A stretch of 64,000 nt of DNA from a virus: IMG/VR virus record IMGVR_UViG_3300045391_005044; one strand, 5' to 3'. The translations under genes and the position numbers were made by a program. Within the stretch, counting starts at the first letter, position 1, and each line of letters opens with the position of its first letter. Of the stretch, positions 1 through 11,858 are shown piece by piece. A model generated the notes under the pieces. It searched no databases and had not been told where the DNA came from. It saw nothing but the letters and a program-made list of their open reading frames with translations.

Positions 1-348
1 CAGGGTGCCAACAATGAGGAGGACAATCATGCTGATCGTGGATGGAGGAGAAGGCGTCAGAAAGCTATCGACTCCATAGTGCATGACTACAAGTGCGAAG
101 CAGAGAAGTTCAACAAGGGTGTCTATTCTCACATCGACAGCATCATCAACCAGATGGGCGGTAAGGCGAAGTTGGGCTTCGACAACTACGCCACGGGAGC
201 CGCCAAGATGATTGAGGAATACGTAAAGGCGGGCAATACGGTAGAGATCCTTACGGTGTGCCAGCTGTACAACCAAGGCTTTATGCGGGAGGTGTTTGAG
301 ACGTTAAAGAAAAGCGAACAGGCGGAAAACATTCAGGATACTGAATAA
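1..348 (+). CDS. hypothetical protein, 5'-truncated by window edge
   Basis: The frame is open from nt 1 (QGANNEEDNHADRGW...) to TAA at 346-348. The tracked start at 79 is only an internal GTG. TAATG overlap with the next start at 348. Confidence 0.5.
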   Translation, partial: QGANNEEDNHADRGWRRRRQKAIDSIVHDYKCEAEKFNKGVYSHIDSIINQMGGKAKLGFDNYATGAAKMIEEYVKAGNTVEILTVCQLYNQGFMREVFETLKKSEQAENIQDTE

Positions 349-1292
349 TGTTCAAGCCCCACTACGGCATATGCAGCGAATGCAAAGAACAAAGGCTACT
401 GGTAGTTAAAAAATTACTCTGTAAAAAATGTAATCATGGAAGAAAAGAAATCAAAGACGATCCTAATTCCAAGCTGGAAGGACGTAGAGAAAGCAACAGG
501 AGAGGAAATATCGGAAAGCACAGGAATTCAAACGACGGAATGGTTGTCTCCAGAAGAGGCTGTAGAAAAGTATGGCAAGAACCAGATAAAAACATATCCT
601 CCAGCACTGAGCCACATTACTGGAGGAGTGGTTATAAAGCCTCGGTCTGGATCAGCGACCCAAGGCTGGGGCATTCTGGGACTGAACAAAAGAACTCCAT
701 CGGATTTCGAAGTAGCAATGGGAATGAGCATGGCAGCACAAAATCAAGACAGAACACTGGAAATAACCAGACCAGAAGGAGCAAAAAGCTGGATCATGGA
801 GCAGGAAATGGAGGAATGGAAAAATCTACAAAACAATCTCTTGGCCTCCAGCGCATCCCCTCTTCCCCCATGGATGCGAAAAGATTTTCTCCTCACCCCA
901 AAGGCTCTACGAAAAAAGAAGTTGCGCCAGGCAAAAAGAAAAAACCGTTACAGTACCGCAGGAAACCTACTGGCGAAGCGGAGGTCTTTAAGAAAATGTT
1001 TCAAGAGAGCCTACAAGCGCATCCAGAAGGTGTCCCATGTCGATGCTGTAAGCTCAGTTTGGGAACAGAACCCATGGCCCATTTCTTTTCCCATGTATTA
1101 CCAAAGAGCACATATCCCGAGTTCAGACTCAATCCCAGAAATATATGGATCGTCTGCTTCGAATGCCATGCAAGATGGGAGAACGGCGGTAGAAATAGCC
1201 CACAATTTAACGAAAAACGAAAGGCTGCCGATCAACTTCGGCAAGAGTCCAATTTACATAGATCCAAGCCAAGTATAAACACTCAAGAGTAA
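348..1292 (+). CDS. NinG/HNH-like zinc-finger nuclease-family protein
   Basis: N-terminal CxxC..CxxC ribbon (CSECKEQ...CKKCN). K/R/S-rich linker ending KKKKPLQYRRKPTGEAEVFKKMF. C-terminal Cys/His block PCRCC..HFFSHVLPKSTYPEFRLNPRNIWIVCFECHARWENG. This architecture resembles lambda NinG and phage HNH proteins. Confidence 0.5.
   Translation: MFKPHYGICSECKEQRLLVVKKLLCKKCNHGRKEIKDDPNSKLEGRRESNRRGNIGKHRNSNDGMVVSRRGCRKVWQEPDKNISSSTEPHYWRSGYKASVWISDPRLGHSGTEQKNSIGFRSSNGNEHGSTKSRQNTGNNQTRRSKKLDHGAGNGGMEKSTKQSLGLQRIPSSPMDAKRFSPHPKGSTKKEVAPGKKKKPLQYRRKPTGEAEVFKKMFQESLQAHPEGVPCRCCKLSLGTEPMAHFFSHVLPKSTYPEFRLNPRNIWIVCFECHARWENGGRNSPQFNEKRKAADQLRQESNLHRSKPSINTQE
436..1278 (+). other. fully overlapping +1-frame ORF (280 codons) inside the NinG/HNH-like gene; coding status unresolved
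   Basis: ATG-initiated and stop-free for 843 nt. Between ~440 and ~830 this frame has G-first codon periodicity and balanced composition (KTILIPSWKDVEKATGEEISE...), while the annotated frame is low-complexity there. Confidence 0.3.
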
Positions 1293-2909: not shown

Positions 2910-3458
2910 ATGGGCCACCTTAGTTCTTATTGCCTCCGTGTTTTCAACATTTTACTACCTATGGTGATAACGATAAATACTGACGCCTCGTTCAGCAACA
3001 AGCACCGCATAGGAGCCTTCGCCTGCTGGGTGGTGAGCAACAGATTCAAAATAAAGTTCGGCGGCATGCTCAAAAAGAAATGCGAGTCCCCAACTCACGC
3101 AGAGTGCATGGCCATCATCAATGCCCTGCATATGGTATTCCTCAATGACATGACCGGAGTGAAAATGATCATCGTCAATACCGACTCCATGAATTCCAAG
3201 CACATATTTGAAAACGACACACAGGCTATAAAGAGATACCGACTGAAGTCCTATTCTCAGCAGTTCTATGGCAGGTTCGTAAAGATGAAGATGGATGCTT
3301 TCCGGCATAACCAGAAGGTAGAGTTCCAATTCAGACACGTGAAGGCCCACCAGGATACCGACACCCCGCGCACATACATCAACGACTGGTGTGATTGCGA
3401 GGCAAAGAGGCACATGGGGCATGCTCTTGATCAATTTAAAGAAAAACAACCAACATGA
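2910..3458 (+). CDS. RNase H-like protein (RNase HI fold)
   Basis: DEDD-type pattern: ITINTDASF, ECMAIINAL, IVNTDS, HVKAHQDTD..NDWCDCEAK. An alternative start is at 2961 (MVITINTDAS). Confidence 0.55.
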   Translation: MGHLSSYCLRVFNILLPMVITINTDASFSNKHRIGAFACWVVSNRFKIKFGGMLKKKCESPTHAECMAIINALHMVFLNDMTGVKMIIVNTDSMNSKHIFENDTQAIKRYRLKSYSQQFYGRFVKMKMDAFRHNQKVEFQFRHVKAHQDTDTPRTYINDWCDCEAKRHMGHALDQFKEKQPT

Positions 3459-5374: not shown

Positions 5375-5719
5375 ATGGACACGAGAGCTGAACACATTTT
5401 CTTAGAAAATTTCTCAAGAGACACTTCATTCACTGGAAAAGAATCCGCTCTTTCTTTAATTTTCGGAGGCAATAAATACAGTCAATCTGAAATGAGAAAA
5501 AATTGGCAAGAGGGGATAAAACTTGGAATAGAAACTGGACTCAGGTGCGCCAGCTTGGAAGGACAAAAAATAGAAATAAACAGCAATGTTAAAAACCCAA
5601 AGCACAAAAAGTTTTTAGAAAAATTCTATGCACTGGCAGAAGAATATAAATGTGCCATACAGTATCATCCAGAATACGGAATATTTGTGGTAGACAGAGA
5701 TTATAACAACTACGAATGA
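5375..5719 (+). CDS. hypothetical protein (cassette bracketed by 19-nt direct repeats)
   Basis: The tracked ORF start at 5306 lies in the tRNA-like gene. The first ATG after it is 5375 (MDTRAEHIF...). The stop overlaps the next start (ATGA at 5716-5719). Confidence 0.5.
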   Translation: MDTRAEHIFLENFSRDTSFTGKESALSLIFGGNKYSQSEMRKNWQEGIKLGIETGLRCASLEGQKIEINSNVKNPKHKKFLEKFYALAEEYKCAIQYHPEYGIFVVDRDYNNYE

Positions 5720-5734
5720 GAATTTTAACAAACA
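5716..5734 (+). repeat. 19-nt direct repeat, right copy
   Basis: Identical to 5346-5364. Forms the true 5' end of the nuclease gene (MRILTNK...). Confidence 0.85.
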
Positions 5735-6762
5735 AGTACAACCTACCCGACACGCTCGCTAAAGCCTGTGCGGTGGACACGCATCGTGTGATGGGAGATT
5801 TGAGCTGCACTACACTGATCGATGCTCCCCAGATCCGCATCTTAAAACGCCTCCACAATTATGAGGAGGACGTTATCGACAACATGTATGCCCTGATGGG
5901 TACGGCGCTGCACCACATCCTGGAGCGGGCCAATATCGTCGAGGAGCGCAAGCGGGCCTTTATGCTCACCGCCGACTTCATCATGACGCAGGCCAAAAAT
6001 TCTAAGGAAACGCACCCCGACCAGTCCGAAAAGCTCACCAAGCTGGGGGATTACCTATTTAAGCTCATTCCTTTTTTCTTCCCGGAGGTGGAGAGCAAGT
6101 ACATCTTCGAAAAGACGCTGATGATCGAGATCGATGGCATGAAGATCTCCGGCACGTTCGACCTGTACGACAAGACCACTGGCATCCTGTACGACTACAA
6201 GTTTTGCTCCGTTTACAACTACATCTTCCCTGAGGCCAGGGACAAGTGGAAGCAGCAACTCAACATCTACGCCTATATGCTGGAACAGCATGGATATAAG
6301 GTCAATGGCATCCGGGTGGTGGCCTTCTTCCGGGACTATAATGTCCACAATTTTATGCGCAATAAGGACTACCCTACCCAGCAGGTGATGGAGATCCCCA
6401 TTGACATGCGCGAACTTCCGGAGATCGAAAGCTTCATTCGTAAGAGGGTACACCTGCACATGCAAGCCGAAGCCGGGATGATGCCTCCATGCAGCGGGAA
6501 GGAGCGATGGGCGAAGGCTGATCAGTTTGCCGTAAAGGTCAAGGAGGGCAAGAAGGTCAGCAAGCGAGCAAAGGCTCTATTCGACAGCCAGGACGAGGCC
6601 AATGGGTATGTGCTGGAGCACAGGCATAAGTTCGAAGACATGTTCGTTGAATTCCGCCCAGGGGAGTCGGTGCGCTGCGAGAAATTCTGCCCGGTATCAT
6701 CAATATGCCCACAGAGAAAGAAGGAACTTGAAGATCGTGAAAAACAAATACAAGAAATATGA
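5716..6762 (+). CDS. PD-(D/E)xK exonuclease, Cas4/RecB-like
   Basis: GTFDLYDKTTGILYDYKF (D...D/E-x-K core), QLNIYAYML (QxxxY), and C-terminal Cys cluster CEKFCPVSSIC plus upstream PPCSG, as in Cas4/AddB-type Fe-S nucleases. Confidence 0.65.
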   Translation: MRILTNKYNLPDTLAKACAVDTHRVMGDLSCTTLIDAPQIRILKRLHNYEEDVIDNMYALMGTALHHILERANIVEERKRAFMLTADFIMTQAKNSKETHPDQSEKLTKLGDYLFKLIPFFFPEVESKYIFEKTLMIEIDGMKISGTFDLYDKTTGILYDYKFCSVYNYIFPEARDKWKQQLNIYAYMLEQHGYKVNGIRVVAFFRDYNVHNFMRNKDYPTQQVMEIPIDMRELPEIESFIRKRVHLHMQAEAGMMPPCSGKERWAKADQFAVKVKEGKKVSKRAKALFDSQDEANGYVLEHRHKFEDMFVEFRPGESVRCEKFCPVSSICPQRKKELEDREKQIQEI

Positions 6763-6989
6763 AAAAACTAATTTTACTGACGGCTGTTATAGCCTCTCTG
6801 TCGTCCTGCGAGACGAAAAATGTCGACATATCATCCACTGACACATCAATATCCGGAAGAGAGATCAAAATTTACACCTTCGATAGCTGTGAATACGTTG
6901 GCTTCGTTATCGGATCACAGTACGATTTCTGGGCTCACAAGGGTAACTGTAAATTCTGCAAGGAGAGAAATAAAACCCAGCAGCCATGA
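6759..6989 (+). CDS. small lipoprotein
   Basis: MKKLILLTAVIASLSSC has a signal peptide with lipobox LSSC. ATGA coupling at both ends. Confidence 0.5.
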   Translation: MKKLILLTAVIASLSSCETKNVDISSTDTSISGREIKIYTFDSCEYVGFVIGSQYDFWAHKGNCKFCKERNKTQQP

Positions 6990-7636
6990 ACAACATCCTT
7001 TTTTTAGACATCGAAACGGTAGCTGAAAAACCGAGCTACGACTATCTGGACGATCGCTGGAAGGCTCTATGGCAAAAGAAATCTGGTGTTGATTCAAATT
7101 TATGGTCAGCATCTTATAAAGCAAAAGCCGCTTTGTACCCTGAATTCGCAAAAATAGTTTGCGTATCTGTTGGCAAGTTGGTTCCTGACGGATCGTTCGT
7201 AACGGAGTCCTTTGCCTCGTACGATGAATTAGAAATACTCACCCTATTCCGCATGCTTCTGGAAGAAGAGAAGTTTCAAATCCTATGCGCTCACAACGGC
7301 AAAGCATTCGATTTTCCGTTCATTGCGAAGCGCCTGACAAAATATGGGCAGAAAGTTCCAAGAATATTGAGCCAGGCAGGTAAAAAGCCATGGGAGATCA
7401 CCAACATAGATACCATGGAAATGTGGAACATGGGCGTATTCGGATCAAAAACATCTCTGGATACCTTGTGTGCATTCTTCAACATCCCGAGTCCAAAAGA
7501 CGAGATTGATGGCGGAGATGTTCACGGTCTGTATTACGGCGATGACCCATTCAGTAACATTAAAATAGCCACCTACTGCGAGAAAGACGTGAAAGCACTT
7601 TACGAAGTTTACAAACGAATAAATTCAAAACTATGA
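6986..7636 (+). CDS. DnaQ/PolB-exonuclease-like 3'-5' exonuclease (RNase H fold)
   Basis: Exo motifs LFLDIETV (ExoI), CAHNGKAFDFPF (ExoII), YCEKDVKALYEVY (ExoIII). Confidence 0.65.
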   Translation: MNNILFLDIETVAEKPSYDYLDDRWKALWQKKSGVDSNLWSASYKAKAALYPEFAKIVCVSVGKLVPDGSFVTESFASYDELEILTLFRMLLEEEKFQILCAHNGKAFDFPFIAKRLTKYGQKVPRILSQAGKKPWEITNIDTMEMWNMGVFGSKTSLDTLCAFFNIPSPKDEIDGGDVHGLYYGDDPFSNIKIATYCEKDVKALYEVYKRINSKL

Positions 7637-8994
7637 TAAATCAATCTGAAGGTCTTAAATTCCTGAGACTTGCGCTCGAAAATTTCAAAAACATTGACCA
7701 GAAGGTCATCGAAATCGGTGGTCAATCCTTCTTTGTGATGGGCAAAAATGGCGCCGGCAAATCTTCCCTGATCCAGGCACTGATGTCCCCGATGGACACC
7801 AAAATAGTGCCTTCTGCCCCAATCAAAAAAGGGGAGGAGCGATCTACCATCTCCGTAACTATCGGAGGTACCGTGAAGGGCGAGCCCAAGCAGTATACCA
7901 TCGACATGTACTTCACGCCCAAGAATCAGTCCGGCAGGATCGTGGTCACCGACCAGAATGGTGAGAACGTGAAGAGCCCGGCCACCTTCCTGAAGTCACA
8001 GATCGGCAACGTATCGTTCGATGTGATGAGATGGATGCAGGACACGAAGGCAAAGAAGCTGGAGACCATAAAAAATCTAACCGGCTGCGGCATGCAGATC
8101 GATCTTATCAATAAGGAGATCAAGGAGACGTCAGAGAAGCGCAAAACGAAGAAGGATCGCGCTGAAGAGCTGGAGGCTATATTAAACAACCACCAGTACA
8201 CCCAGGAGCAGATCGACCGGTACTCCAACCCAAGGGATGTGGAAGCCATTCAGGCGGAACTGTCTGCTATTTCTGCCAACCAGAAAATCTACGATGATTT
8301 TAACATGAAAGTGGAAGGATTGAAAAATCAGATGACAATGATGTACAATCAGGCTTCAAATCACCAAAACGAGGCAGAAAGAAAAAAAGCAGAGATTGTC
8401 AGGCTGCAGGCTGAAGTTCAAGCACATGAGGACAAAATGACTGAAATTCAACAGGGAATAAACGAGTTAGACACCAAATTGTTCACTGGTCAAAACTGGC
8501 TCAATAGCAATCATCGCCCAGTAAGCGACGAGGTAGTATCTAAGCTAAACGAAGCTACTACCCACAATCTGCACTGCGCAAATATCTCCGGTCTTGCCGA
8601 GAAGCAGCGCGAGATGCTCAAATTTAAGGAGGAAGTGCTGCAGGCAGACAATGCCATCAAAAAGCTGGAGGACGACCGATCAACTCTGATCTCCAAGTCG
8701 CAGCTTCCAATCAAGGACCTCACCTTCACGGATGATGAGATTTTCTTAAATGGCATCCCGCTGGAGGAAGGGCAGGTAAATACCGCTAAATTGTTTGAGG
8801 TGGGCGTTGACGTGGCTATAGCCCTCAATCCGGGGCTGAAGACCATATTCCTTCACGATGGCTCGTTATTCGATAAGGACAACCTACGTGTGATCGTCGA
8901 TAAGATCGAATCCAGGGGCTACCAAGCGATCATTGAGGTCGTAGCGGAGAATGACGATGTAGAGGTTAAATTTACAGAGGAGGAATTAAAATAA
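7633..8994 (+). CDS. SMC/RecF/SbcC-like ATPase
   Basis: N-terminal Walker A GKNGAGKSS, long central coiled-coil (K/E/Q-rich), C-terminal Walker B-like TIFLHDGSLFD. Confidence 0.65.
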   Translation: MINQSEGLKFLRLALENFKNIDQKVIEIGGQSFFVMGKNGAGKSSLIQALMSPMDTKIVPSAPIKKGEERSTISVTIGGTVKGEPKQYTIDMYFTPKNQSGRIVVTDQNGENVKSPATFLKSQIGNVSFDVMRWMQDTKAKKLETIKNLTGCGMQIDLINKEIKETSEKRKTKKDRAEELEAILNNHQYTQEQIDRYSNPRDVEAIQAELSAISANQKIYDDFNMKVEGLKNQMTMMYNQASNHQNEAERKKAEIVRLQAEVQAHEDKMTEIQQGINELDTKLFTGQNWLNSNHRPVSDEVVSKLNEATTHNLHCANISGLAEKQREMLKFKEEVLQADNAIKKLEDDRSTLISKSQLPIKDLTFTDDEIFLNGIPLEEGQVNTAKLFEVGVDVAIALNPGLKTIFLHDGSLFDKDNLRVIVDKIESRGYQAIIEVVAENDDVEVKFTEEELK

Positions 8995-8998
8995 GGAA

Positions 8999-10021
8999 AT
9001 GTGGATTATACCAAATACTCACCCGCTGTACTCAGCCTTTGCCCAGGAATGCGTGGACTCGAAAGAGGCGTTGAAAGAGCATTTACCCGACTTGGTTGGA
9101 AGCAGCCAACAACCGCAGCTTATGTGGAAATCGAAGCCTTCATCATCTGGAACCTGGTTAAGCAGATGGAGCAGGGTGTACTGGATCCCGCACCTATTCA
9201 CTCGAACATTAAAACCTTCCCTTGGGAAATCCTTCGAGGAAAAATTGACTTCATATTTGGCGGATACCCCTGCCAGCCGTTTAGTGTCGCCGGTAAATTG
9301 GGAGGAACAGAAGACCCAAGGCATCTATGGCCTTACATCAAATCAGGAATCGAAACAATTAAACCTGTGGGATGCTTTTTTGAGAACGTCAGAAACCACC
9401 TTAACATCGGATACGAGCAAGTCAAAACAGAACTGGAAGAGCTTGGTTACCGAGTTGAGCAGGGAATCTATTCAGCGGAAGAAGTTGGCGCGCCTCACAA
9501 GAGAGACAGGTTGTTTATTCTCGCAATCTTGGCCGACACCTACACTAATGATTCAGGAAACGAGCTTGGAAATATTTCAAGCGAGAGCAAAGAGATTAAA
9601 AGAGAGGAACAACGGACGGAACGGAACCAAGCGCTCTGGCAACGGGGCAGGAATGAATCTAGGAGTTGCAGTAAACAAATGGAGCACTCCAGTTTCGCGG
9701 GATTACAGGAGTCCGGATATAGTAACGTCGGGGAATTTTCAGAGGAAGAAAGAAAAGGGCTGGACGATAGACCTAAACAGTCAGGTGATGAACTGGCCCA
9801 CTCCGGTTGCATCGGACGATGGCCGGAAAGTCACGAAAGCATCGAACCAAAATTCATTGATAAAGGCTACGTGTGGCCCTCTAAACCAGGACAAGAACAG
9901 TTCGGGTGGGAATATCCTCGTACTGAATCCCGCGTGGGTTTTACAGTTGATGGGTACAACTTTAGAGAAGACCTTTTGCGAATGGCAGGGAATGGAGTTG
10001 TTGAACAAACCGCAGAATTAG
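8999..10021 (+). other. fully overlapping +1-frame ORF (340 codons) in the C5-MTase gene; WPTP-repeat region; coding status unresolved
   Basis: ATG at 8999 interlocks with GTG at 9001 (ATGTGG). Stop-free for 1023 nt. nt 9530-9958 read SWPTPT..STPVSRDYRSPD..NWPTPVASDDG..LNPAWVLQLMG. Confidence 0.3.
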
Positions 10022-10065
10022 CATTTTTAGATTTATTGAAAAAACATTTATGGACATCCAATTAA
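9001..10065 (+). CDS. DNA (cytosine-5)-methyltransferase
   Basis: Motif I LSLCPGMRGLERG. Motif IV FGGYPCQPFSVAGK. Motif VI FFENVRN. Motif VIII GAPHKRDRLFILA. Motif X LLRMAGNGVVEQ. Needs the GTG start at 9001, because the first in-frame ATG would delete motif I. Confidence 0.85.
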   Translation: MDYTKYSPAVLSLCPGMRGLERGVERAFTRLGWKQPTTAAYVEIEAFIIWNLVKQMEQGVLDPAPIHSNIKTFPWEILRGKIDFIFGGYPCQPFSVAGKLGGTEDPRHLWPYIKSGIETIKPVGCFFENVRNHLNIGYEQVKTELEELGYRVEQGIYSAEEVGAPHKRDRLFILAILADTYTNDSGNELGNISSESKEIKREEQRTERNQALWQRGRNESRSCSKQMEHSSFAGLQESGYSNVGEFSEEERKGLDDRPKQSGDELAHSGCIGRWPESHESIEPKFIDKGYVWPSKPGQEQFGWEYPRTESRVGFTVDGYNFREDLLRMAGNGVVEQTAELAFLDLLKKHLWTSN

Positions 10066-11858
10066 TTGACGACAGGACCGTGAGGTTCCAAAAAAAGCTG
10101 TGGGCGGAGTCGGAGATCATCCTTGCCAAGTGCTTTGGCTTTGAGATAGACATTGACAGCGGGCGCATGCATGCCAACCTGGCCATGACCTCCAAAAAGT
10201 CTCTCTTCGAATTTATCCGCATAGCCTTCAAAAATTTCAGCGAGTCTCCCACAGAGACGGAGCGCCGGAACATGTTCTTTGGAGAAGTGCAGGGATGTTA
10301 CGATCAGATCGATTATCAGGCCGATCTCCAGATAAAGCCTCGTCTTCCGTATTACGACAGTTTTTACGATCACCAGAAGCAGGGATTGCGGGAAGTGTTT
10401 TACAAAAAACACAACTTTTTGGCCTACGAAATGGGTCTTGGAAAATCGTTGACAAGTGCTTCCATATCCAGAGTATTCCAAATACCACGAACAGTAATCG
10501 TGTGCCCGGCCGCCGTAAAGTGGAACTGGTATCGGGACCTGGTAAAGTTTGGGTATAACGAGCTTTACTTTACTATCCTTGACTCATCGAAGTACAAGAC
10601 CGTTCGTGCCTTCAACGAGCGCTTTGTGATCATCAACTACGACATGTTGCCGAACTTTGAAAAGGAGCTCTGTAAACTTCCGGTAGGCCACTTCATCTTG
10701 GATGAGGCTCACTATCTGAAGAACCACAATTCGGCCCGCTACAAGAACCTGAAGAAGGTAATCGACCAGCACACCGACCCGAGGATTACCTTTCTCTCTG
10801 GCACGCCAATCACCAACCGGGTGAATGACGTATTCGCCTACCTGAAACTCATCGGCCACGAGCTGGGGCAGTCCCATAAAAAGTTTCTTGACGAATACAC
10901 CATAAAGACCACCAACAGAGGAGGGGAGCGCGTAACTGGCGGAAGGAATCTGCAGGACCTGCACATAAAGCTCTCCAACTTCATGATCCGCAAGACCAAG
11001 GAGGAATGCCTGGATCTGCCTGGAAAGATCTTCATGTCCTACCGGTTTGAGATGGATGACTACCGCGATGAGTACAACAAGATCATCGAGGAGATGTCAA
11101 AAAACAAGGACATATCCTCCCTGACGGGCAACATACACTCTTTAAACATCATAACCTCCAAAGCCAAGATACATGGCATAAAGGAGCTTGCAGAGACGAT
11201 TCTGGAGACTGGAAAGAAAGTTGTCATCTTTGGTAGCTACAAGGAGCCTCTGAACGAGCTGGAGGCCTATTTTGGTAAGAAGTGCGTAAAGATCGATGGA
11301 TCTGTAGATTCCTGGATGCGCGATCAGCTGGTGCAGCGCTTCCATAACGATCCGGAGGTTACCGTGTTCCTTGGGAACATGAAAGCCGCAGGCGTAGGTA
11401 TAAACCTCACCAATGCATCGGATGTCATATACCTGAACTTCCCTCTGAGCCCTGCAGACCTGTACCAAAGCATGGACCGCCTTGACAGGATCGGGCAGGT
11501 ATCGTGTGTGAATGTACACTACACCTTCTGCGAGGACAGCATCGATGACGATATCTATGATCTGATCGTGGACAAGGAGAAGGACATTGTAGCGCTGATC
11601 GACCAGGGCAGGGAGGTTATGTTCCGGGAGAATATTGTGGAGACGCTGATGAAAAAGATTTTCAACAGGGGAAGTGAGGAGCAAATAATTGGTGAAATCG
11701 TTACACCGGAGTGGGAAAATGTTCCCGAAACGGTGAAGGCTACTATCTCTGTAGAGCCTTCTGTTGTTCCGAAAGAAGAGAACATTTTTGCCCAAAAGCT
11801 TCGGGAATCTGAATCTAAAGGCACATCAATTCAATCCCTAACCCCACCAGATCTGTAA
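10050..11858 (+). CDS. SNF2-family helicase / DNA-dependent ATPase
   Basis: LAYEMGLGKSLTS (motif I), ILDEAHYLKN (II), LSGTPITNR (III), and a C-terminal helicase domain with KAAGVGINLT and QSMDRLDRIGQ (VI). Confidence 0.85.
   Translation: MDIQLIDDRTVRFQKKLWAESEIILAKCFGFEIDIDSGRMHANLAMTSKKSLFEFIRIAFKNFSESPTETERRNMFFGEVQGCYDQIDYQADLQIKPRLPYYDSFYDHQKQGLREVFYKKHNFLAYEMGLGKSLTSASISRVFQIPRTVIVCPAAVKWNWYRDLVKFGYNELYFTILDSSKYKTVRAFNERFVIINYDMLPNFEKELCKLPVGHFILDEAHYLKNHNSARYKNLKKVIDQHTDPRITFLSGTPITNRVNDVFAYLKLIGHELGQSHKKFLDEYTIKTTNRGGERVTGGRNLQDLHIKLSNFMIRKTKEECLDLPGKIFMSYRFEMDDYRDEYNKIIEEMSKNKDISSLTGNIHSLNIITSKAKIHGIKELAETILETGKKVVIFGSYKEPLNELEAYFGKKCVKIDGSVDSWMRDQLVQRFHNDPEVTVFLGNMKAAGVGINLTNASDVIYLNFPLSPADLYQSMDRLDRIGQVSCVNVHYTFCEDSIDDDIYDLIVDKEKDIVALIDQGREVMFRENIVETLMKKIFNRGSEEQIIGEIVTPEWENVPETVKATISVEPSVVPKEENIFAQKLRESESKGTSIQSLTPPDL

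Follow-up and report, generated by a model that had tools for sequence, protein, structure and literature searches.

A DNA methyltransferase gene of the cytosine-5 (C5) family was found at positions 8999 to 10065 of IMG/VR virus record IMGVR_UViG_3300045391_005044, a stretch of 64,000 nucleotides (nt) that was analyzed as a whole and is called the window here. Two open reading frames (ORFs), both stop-free in the ORF listing of the window, shared the locus on the same strand: GTG-9001..10065 (frame A, 354 amino acids) and ATG-8999..10021 (frame B, 340 amino acids), the latter being the +1 frame of the former. The double openness of frames A and B was far beyond chance, and the selected frame switched from A to B and back to A within the gene. 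We consider it probable that the gene encodes a two-subunit C5 methyltransferase, with the two chains produced from the two frames through an ambiguous AUGUG start.

The features of the locus were as follows; those marked (r) were read directly from the sequence.

8999..9003, +, interlocked starts AUGUG: ATG 8999-9001 opens B and GTG 9001-9003 opens A; sequence ATGTGG at 8999-9004
8999..10021, +, ORF B, proposed beta subunit, +1 frame of A, 340 amino acids
8999..9529, +, leader of frame B (residues 1-177), lying over the catalytic domain; stop-free, sequence fast-evolving
9001..10065, +, ORF A, proposed alpha subunit: large catalytic domain, then a disordered linker, then the motif X helix at the C-terminus, 354 amino acids
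9031-9069, +, frame A motif I LSLCPGMRGLERG (r)
9121-9135, +, frame A motif II YVEIE
9259-9285, +, frame A motif IV GGYPCQPFS (r)
9376-9390, +, frame A motif VI FFENV (r)
9493-9525, +, frame A motif VIII PHKRDRLFILA (r)
9526..9873, +, linker of frame A, of E/R/S/G low complexity, lying over the variable region of frame B; open, protein unconserved
9530..9922, +, variable region of frame B, probably for target recognition; WxTPxAxD repeats at 9530, 9680 and 9794
9530-9541, 9680-9691 and 9794-9805, +, frame B WPTP, WSTP and WPTP (r)
9874..10047, +, frame A C-terminal block: WPSKPGQEQFGWEYPR at 9874-9921, SRVGFTVDGYNF at 9928-9963, and REDLLRMAGNGVVEQTAELAF
9923-9955, +, frame B LNPAWVLQLMG, motif IX equivalent (r)
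9988-10002, +, frame A motif X GNGVV, within REDLLRMAGNGVVEQTAELAF; conserved in homologs

Openness and content of the two frames

The overlap of the two ORFs covered 1,020 of the 1,065 nt of the gene, with 340 codons in frame B compared with 354 in frame A, and the third forward frame at the locus contained ~40 stops. The original prediction had described two ORFs longer than 1 kb with these coordinates and lengths and with starts interlocked in ATGTGG, and the ORF listing and the sequence agreed with it; LADT of frame A and WPTP of frame B were also read from the same nucleotides, as it had stated. Among 45 other ORFs in the window, the +1 frame had 0.055 stops per codon. The longest open +1 run in these control ORFs was at most 114 codons, vs. 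339 at the methyltransferase, with the gene at 348-1292 as the one exception. When synonymous codons of the window gene were resampled with the codon usage of the genome, the expectation was 9.05 stops in frame B across the 176 N-terminal codons of frame A, and 8.33 in frame A across the 142 codons of the frame B middle; in each half, none of the 5000 resamples was free of stops. Judged by these resamples and controls, the earlier chance estimate of about 1e-7 was, if anything, conservative.

Frame A can be assigned to the C5 methyltransferase family, though not as a single chain. It matched Pfam PF00145 above the gathering cut-off (E 5.3e-28, 98.8 bits) and scored 73.4 bits against TIGR00675, under the curated cut-off of 100.65; motifs I, IV, VI, VIII, and X, which had been recognized previously, were all present. 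The PDB sequence search gave a match to M.HhaI over residues 83-175, covering the catalytic core only, and the top Foldseek matches of the frame A model were M.HhaI and M.HaeIII (core fold). In the AlphaFold model, which was run with a 65-sequence alignment, residues 1-180 formed a confident Rossmann-type domain with a predicted local distance difference test (pLDDT) of about 90 or higher, residues 183-290 (~110 amino acids) were disordered with pLDDT <50, the WPSKPGQ... segment was moderately confident, and the C-terminal helix 321-353 had pLDDT >90. A confident core, a spacer and a C-terminal helix are what frame A should show as the large domain, with motifs I-VIII and X. The claimed collapse of the centre of frame A into low complexity was borne out both by this model and by the family alignment, in which the centre was gappy and unconserved; the C-terminal block WPARPGQxQxEWExPR...GYNFREDLLRMAGNGVVEQTAELAF was conserved in full-length homologs. 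The motif X helix that closes the large domain was present in frame A, and a variable region with motif IX was not found between motifs VIII and X of this chain.

A public gene call (P0001, 338 amino acids, JGI) was identical to frame A from M17 on. It started at an internal ATG (9049, M17, MRGLERG...) inside motif I, so that LSLCPG of the S-adenosylmethionine loop was lost. This start was probably mis-called, given the GTG/ATG interlock.

Frame B had no Pfam or NCBIfam match. A total of 180 database proteins matched it at E<=1e-3, none of them with a Pfam domain. A very large uncultured phage family shared the arrangement: the profile search with frame B recovered 24,663 cluster representatives at E<=1e-3, of which 2,441 were at E<=1e-30, mostly starting at profile position 1, and the homologs included a Bacteroidota metagenome-assembled genome and a Dyadobacter chromosome. 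Residues L309, P311, W313, L317, M318, and G319 were invariant in 67 frame B proteins, and the numbers of WxTP repeats varied among relatives. Frame B residues 80-290 matched phrog_1008 "DNA methyltransferase" (E 2e-10), and further along its profile PHROG 1008 matched frame A residues 316-347. PHROG 1008 therefore appears to have been built from beta-type proteins carrying motif X. In the leader, PAS and LKTS were the +1 readings of PCQ and ENV. The original prediction had singled out the centre of frame B, and BLASTP and substitution periodicity indicated that this centre was indeed a conserved and selected reading of the stretch, with WxTP repeats and LNPxWVxxLMG. It is probably the recognition module of the enzyme.

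Selection and conservation in related loci

The comparison set comprised 80 related loci from IMG/VR, which were independent contigs of different metagenomes (some counts refer to 81 loci). Frame B was stop-free over the catalytic domain in 79 of the 80 loci, where the third frame had 5-14 stops, and its middle was stop-free in all 69 loci with a delimitable middle. Both frames were open nearly end to end in about 74 of 80 loci. Synonymous shuffling within each gene gave 3.2 expected stops per locus and a mean probability of 0.02 for zero stops. The outcome that the original prediction had named as contrary to it, a frame B lacking homologs and interrupted by stops in related genomes, was not what these loci and the 180 matching proteins showed.

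The frame under selection was followed segment by segment through substitution periodicity, that is, the mismatch fractions at frame A codon positions 1/2/3 in blastn-aligned pairs:

Motifs I-VIII: 0.199/0.129/0.341, wobble in frame A
Middle: 0.325/0.134/0.135, wobble at A position 1, which is B position 3; frame B coded
LNP..LMG: 0.29/0.074/0.044, frame B
LMG to the B stop: 0.205/0.06/0.23, both frames
After the B stop: 0.097/0.072/0.499, pure frame A

Over the catalytic domain, identity was 0.555 in frame A, 0.389 in frame B, and 0.345 in the third frame. The value for frame B was barely above that of the third frame, which suggested that the leader is mostly a by-product of frame A plus the constraint to stay open. 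Synonymous change in frame A was 0.344 where frame B overlaps and 0.566 in the non-overlapped tail of the gene (pooled), with the same direction in 140 of 150 pairs; the tail of the gene itself served as the control, as flanking genes were not syntenic across loci. The homolog comparison thus found both ORFs conserved and synonymous change in A suppressed under B, in line with the original prediction. Codon-usage log-odds were similar for A and B in the middle and did not separate the frames. At the end of motif VIII, W-P-[TS]-P of frame B overlay I-[LM]-A-[DNHY]-[ST] of frame A in nearly all loci, and the variable fourth residue of frame A (D, N, H, or Y; xAC codons) began at the synonymous third base of the frame B proline codon.

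The same two-frame layout was found in two cultured phages, Synechococcus phage Yong-M2-251 and Phage C75C1 (33-45% core identity), whose frame B ended in perfect LNPLFVEWLMGWPPGWT and LNPNWVEQLMGLPTGWT motifs. A blastn search of the gene against 50,697 phage genomes gave no match, and a plasmid search by tblastn with the middle of frame B gave two Paenibacillus records only. With the middle peptide of window frame B, tblastn detected 18 loci, always in the +1 frame (best E 3e-17), compared with one locus for the frame A middle peptide. In the all-vs-all BLASTP of middles, 1042 pairs at E<1e-3 were in the B frame vs. 595 in the A frame. An A-B-A chimera used as the database query recovered thousands of proteins, with P0001 as the best match and mainly full-length frame A proteins aligned in frame A throughout, which indicated that frame A is open family-wide.

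Three relatives (L039, L018, and L078) carried motif X (RxDRxRxxGNGVVP) in frame B, after LNPxWVExLMGxPxGWT. The point at which frame A closed differed among them: L039, with 22 stops in the middle, lost the frame directly after motif VIII; L018, with 2 stops, lost it late in the middle; and L078 kept it through a short linker and the WPARPGQ block. All three nevertheless had a stop-free frame B leader with an ATG start. The middle of frame A appears to be kept open only when A must reach motif X, and the B leader appears always to be kept open. These variants, with an open B leader and an early closing A, favour two polypeptides.

In one relative, L038 (IMGVR_UViG_3300002137_000205), positions 2999-3004 read ATGTAG, which is a stop at codon 2 of frame B, and GTA is no start for frame A. 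L038 was the sole relative with a destroyed double start and may be an inactivated copy.

Proposed expression of the two frames

Upstream of AUGUG there was an A-rich leader without a Shine-Dalgarno (SD) sequence. A GGAG/GAGG core was found upstream of 3 of 47 window ORFs, at random expectation (0.088), and the 20 nt ahead of the window start codons were 71% A+T vs. 55.6% for the genome. A-rich leaders without SD sequences are typical for Bacteroidota, and the window fits a phage whose host is of the Bacteroidota type. The double start was well conserved: ATGTGG(A/G)T was kept in 65 of 81 loci, GTGTGGAT was found in five, and ATGACATGGAT, with two ATGs 5 nt apart, in five. The ATG of frame B was interlocked with the frame A start, or 2-7 nt from it, in nearly all loci. 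There is no other known reason for the two bases preceding a GTG start to be conserved. In E. coli, translation can begin in both frames at AUGUG and GUGUG sites (Kohl et al., 2022; PMC9841429). As the host does not appear to use SD-driven internal initiation, we infer that beta must start where alpha starts, and that frame B must be open across the catalytic domain.

In the proposed enzyme, alpha (frame A) would consist of the large catalytic domain with motifs I-VIII, a linker of ~110 amino acids apparently constrained only to stay open, and the motif X helix completing the large domain. Beta (frame B) would supply the small domain, made up of the variable WxTP-repeat region and motif IX, behind a leader of 177 amino acids that would likewise be constrained mainly to stay open. 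Both chains would start at one ribosome-entry site, with AUG for beta and GUG for alpha, and ambiguous initiation would set the alpha:beta ratio. The two chains would then assemble into the active enzyme, as in M.EcoHK31I. Among the mechanisms named in the original prediction, dual coding is favoured by the conserved double start, the open frames and the lack of a slippery site. Purifying selection on each frame, together with the conserved double start, is indirect support that both chains are made and needed. A wider proposal, which we advance tentatively and with slightly more doubt than conviction, is that phages have a large unrecognized class of C5 methyltransferases in which dual coding is obligate and extends over the full length, with one AUGUG in SD-less mRNAs launching both frames, start choice fixing the stoichiometry, and the recognition module diversifying inside the low complexity of frame A.

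Several points weigh against the two-subunit enzyme. The case for production of both chains and for their association is built from sequence and selection. Taken by itself, substitution periodicity is just as compatible with an A-B-A chimera. The output of alpha is uncertain, since GUG initiates weakly, and perhaps even more weakly where the host does not use SD sequences. AlphaFold of frame B alone gave a mean pLDDT of 60.5, a predicted template modelling score of 0.28 and a few confident helices, leaving the small-domain fold unconfirmed. The low-confidence solo model was uninformative; frame B may fold only on alpha and DNA. The BLASTP match of the frame B middle to gp69 of Mycobacterium phage Moonbeam, a single-chain enzyme, was weak (E 0.068), and when frame B was compared by hhalign with methyltransferases of the single-chain or actinophage beta type, a single WPTP repeat unit aligned (E 1.5e-3, probability 17%). 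With matches this weak, homology of the recognition region outside the clade of the window is not established. The likeness to M.EcoHK31I is one of motif distribution and of a beta in an alternative frame.

Another arrangement of two subunits, in which beta is produced from an internal start and the first part of the leader is untranslated, is unlikely. The second ATGTGG at 9122-9127 (frame B M42, "LMWKSKP") would be an example of such a start. M42 and W43 were nearly invariant in frame B proteins, the amino-acid sequence of the leader was weakly conserved, and an internal start was the rule for beta in the annotated phages of Firmicutes and Actinobacteria. However, M42 was a by-product of alpha motif II (Y-V-E = TAT GTG GAA), frame B was stop-free for 41 codons upstream of M42, and about 75 of 81 loci retained its 5′ ATG. 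Phages with internal starts had the frame closed upstream, and the genes of the window showed no SD use to drive such initiation.

Programmed frameshifting, which the original prediction had also proposed, ranks next and is improbable. A +1 shift near 9529 and a -1 shift near 9955 would yield a single A-B-A chain, perhaps alongside unshifted products. Such a chain reproduces the canonical order of motifs I-VIII, variable region, IX and X, the selected frame switches exactly at those points, and single-frame relatives with that order exist (e.g., Moonbeam gp69). However, no slippery site was found at either junction. The A-to-B junction read ATC/ATT-N-TGG with a varying skipped base (T, A, or C) and non-cognate re-pairing of AUC, and an X_XXY_YYZ heptamer was present in only 1 of 57 distinct B tails. 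Frameshifting needs no open frame B over the 176 upstream codons, no ATG for frame B and no open middle of frame A, yet all three were conserved and would be left unexplained. As WPTP covers the final residues of the strand of motif VIII, the fused chain would truncate this strand, and two successive shifts would multiply two low efficiencies. In genes known to be frameshifted, the slippery sequence is conserved and the alternative frame is needed only downstream; the window gene showed neither feature. The chimera also brought no gain in its Pfam score (91.3 vs. 98.8 bits for frame A alone).

It is very improbable that expression is confined to frame A, whose product would be a complete enzyme in which the variable region has degenerated, and that frame B is an untranslated relic or is open through composition. 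Gene callers and annotators mostly report frame A alone, and the codon-usage scores of the middle would allow it. However, the wobble in the middle fell on B position 3 and A position 3 was as conserved as position 2, which requires selection on B at the level of translation; the frame B motifs were invariant across the 67 diverged proteins; and the stop-free resampling result (P <2e-4 per segment) recurred in 80 loci. The comparative data led to the rejection of sequencing error, of a pseudogene and of openness through composition. The splitting of one ordinary ORF by two compensating assembly indels, a formal possibility alone, has a negligible chance of being right, because the same architecture was found in 80 independent contigs, two cultured phages and annotated embedded pairs of coding sequences (CDSs), and the independently called P0001 agreed with frame A.

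Genomic context and comparison with known systems

The methyltransferase gene was located in a replication/recombination module with the following neighbours:

5716-6762, PD-(D/E)XK nuclease
6986-7636, 3′-5′ exonuclease
7633-8994, AAA/SMC-like ATPase
10050-11858, SNF2 helicase

The ATPase ORF ended at 8994, 5 nt before AUGUG, and the helicase ATG (10050) lay 16 nt inside the 3′ end of ORF A. The tightly packed ATPase, methyltransferase and helicase genes are probably co-transcribed. No restriction endonuclease was evident, so that the product of the gene is most likely an orphan phage methyltransferase protecting phage DNA from host restriction.

A second gene with an open +1 frame was located at 348..1292 (+, 314 amino acids), overlapping 436-1278 (+, 280 amino acids), with an open +1 run of 290 codons. 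Its N-terminus was rich in Cys, its middle was of R/S/N/G low complexity, and its C-terminus weakly resembled HNH (PF01844, E 0.045). About 190 codons of the +1 frame were likewise open in its only IMG/VR relative (L088, 40% identity). The phage may thus have a further dual-coded gene here.

Should both chains be made, one DNA stretch of ~1 kb would encode both structural domains of one enzyme, an arrangement that would be conserved in a very large phage gene family. If the wider proposal is right, the overlap would be among the longest conserved same-strand gene overlaps in double-stranded DNA phages, and thousands of "methyltransferases with low-complexity centres" and of "hypothetical proteins" in the databases would be the two halves of one enzyme. 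The corresponding mis-annotations would be corrected, namely the spurious "variable region" of frame A, the "hypothetical" frame B, and truncated A calls such as P0001. Research on overlapping genes would gain a comparative data set with an internal control, as the selected frame switches twice per gene. Ambiguous AUGUG initiation would be tied to a functional need, the co-expression of subunits where internal SD-driven starts are unavailable. The frame B module would be the part to examine or swap in predicting or engineering the specificity of phage anti-restriction methyltransferases.

The programmed-frameshift genes prfB, dnaX, and the phage tail chaperone G/GT resemble the window gene in that two frames serve one functional product; they have a conserved slippery site and an alternative frame closed upstream, and the window has neither. 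Moonbeam gp69 shares with the window the catalytic core (33% identity, E 1e-32), xPTPxAxD repeats, L(N/H)PxF/WxEWxMGWPxGW, and GNGVVP. However, its repeats and motifs IX and X are in the frame of the core, and its +1 frame has stops. Directly after motif VIII, the +1 frame of Moonbeam gp69 (L083, 589-1692) read ...SSSLPTPRGSAERTSYG...SPSLEQAIE, and frame A was of low complexity until LLPTPSAAD. This +1 stretch may be what is left of a two-frame arrangement in actinophage enzymes, or a partial form of one.

The AUGUG start resembles the sites described by Kohl et al. (2022; PMC9841429) in having two canonical starts two bases apart and products in overlapping frames. Those were native E. coli sites and reporters with mostly short alternative ORFs, whereas both frames of the window are long, conserved and, in the proposal, functionally linked.

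Two annotated methyltransferase CDSs with a +1-frame beta were present in four phages of SD-using hosts. The beta was embedded in Paenibacillus phage Likha (LIKHA_51/52) and Streptococcus phage P0093 (gp46/gp47), and the overlap was partial in CloudWang3 and Sebastisaurus, at 179 and 32 nt respectively, compared with ~1 kb in the window. Likha gp52 had the same WxTP repeats and LNPDWVECLMGFPIGWT as window frame B, and Likha gp51 had the same low-complexity middle as window frame A and a C-terminal ...LGNAV block. The betas of Likha, P0093, and CloudWang3 had an internal start with a purine-rich SD-like stretch and a frame closed just upstream; the beta of Sebastisaurus had a weak purine-rich stretch only, and its frame was open about 310 nt further upstream. 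In Likha and P0093, beta started 151-184 nt inside alpha, whereas in the window clade the frame is open to the 5′ end and the start is shared. P0093 gp47 (L087) was of another C-terminal type (...WMSWGMMSNGKCLT...ECSLSDILE), lacking the WPTP and LNP motifs, and its variable region was of a different type. Other lineages of C5 methyltransferases, whose variable regions are unrelated, may therefore also use a +1-frame beta.

M.AquI is likewise a C5 methyltransferase split into two polypeptides in or next to the variable region. Its alpha has motifs I-VIII plus a portion of the variable region, and its beta has the rest of the variable region and motifs IX-X (PMC3404938). The same distribution, with a +1-frame beta, was found in L039, L018, L078, CloudWang3 gp91/gp90, and Sebastisaurus gp34/gp35. 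In the window, motifs IX and X were not on the same chain, motif X staying on alpha.

The closest parallel in motif distribution was M.EcoHK31I of E. coli (YGGCCR), described as a natural heterodimeric C5 methyltransferase with beta inside the alpha gene, in another frame of the same strand (PMC2836561; PMC3404938). Its alpha has motifs I-VIII and X, its beta has motif IX, and both chains are required for activity (PMC2836561; PMC3404938). The window gene likewise had a same-strand ORF in another frame within alpha and the split of motifs into I-VIII plus X and IX. The beta of M.EcoHK31I is reportedly 176 amino acids long, compared with 309 for alpha, in the 1995 work of Lee, Kam and Shaw. The window beta was near full-length with its start interlocked at AUGUG, whereas that of M.EcoHK31I is reported to be shorter and embedded, with an internal start. 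The literature places the predicted recognition domain of M.EcoHK31I on alpha; in the window, the conserved variable region was on beta, and its alpha counterpart was a disordered spacer. M.EcoHK31I belongs to a restriction-modification system, whereas the window enzyme would be a phage orphan in a replication module. No paper describing the full-length form with a shared start was found within the literature searched. The principle of an alternative-frame beta is already known; the near-complete 1-kb overlap with a shared start is new.

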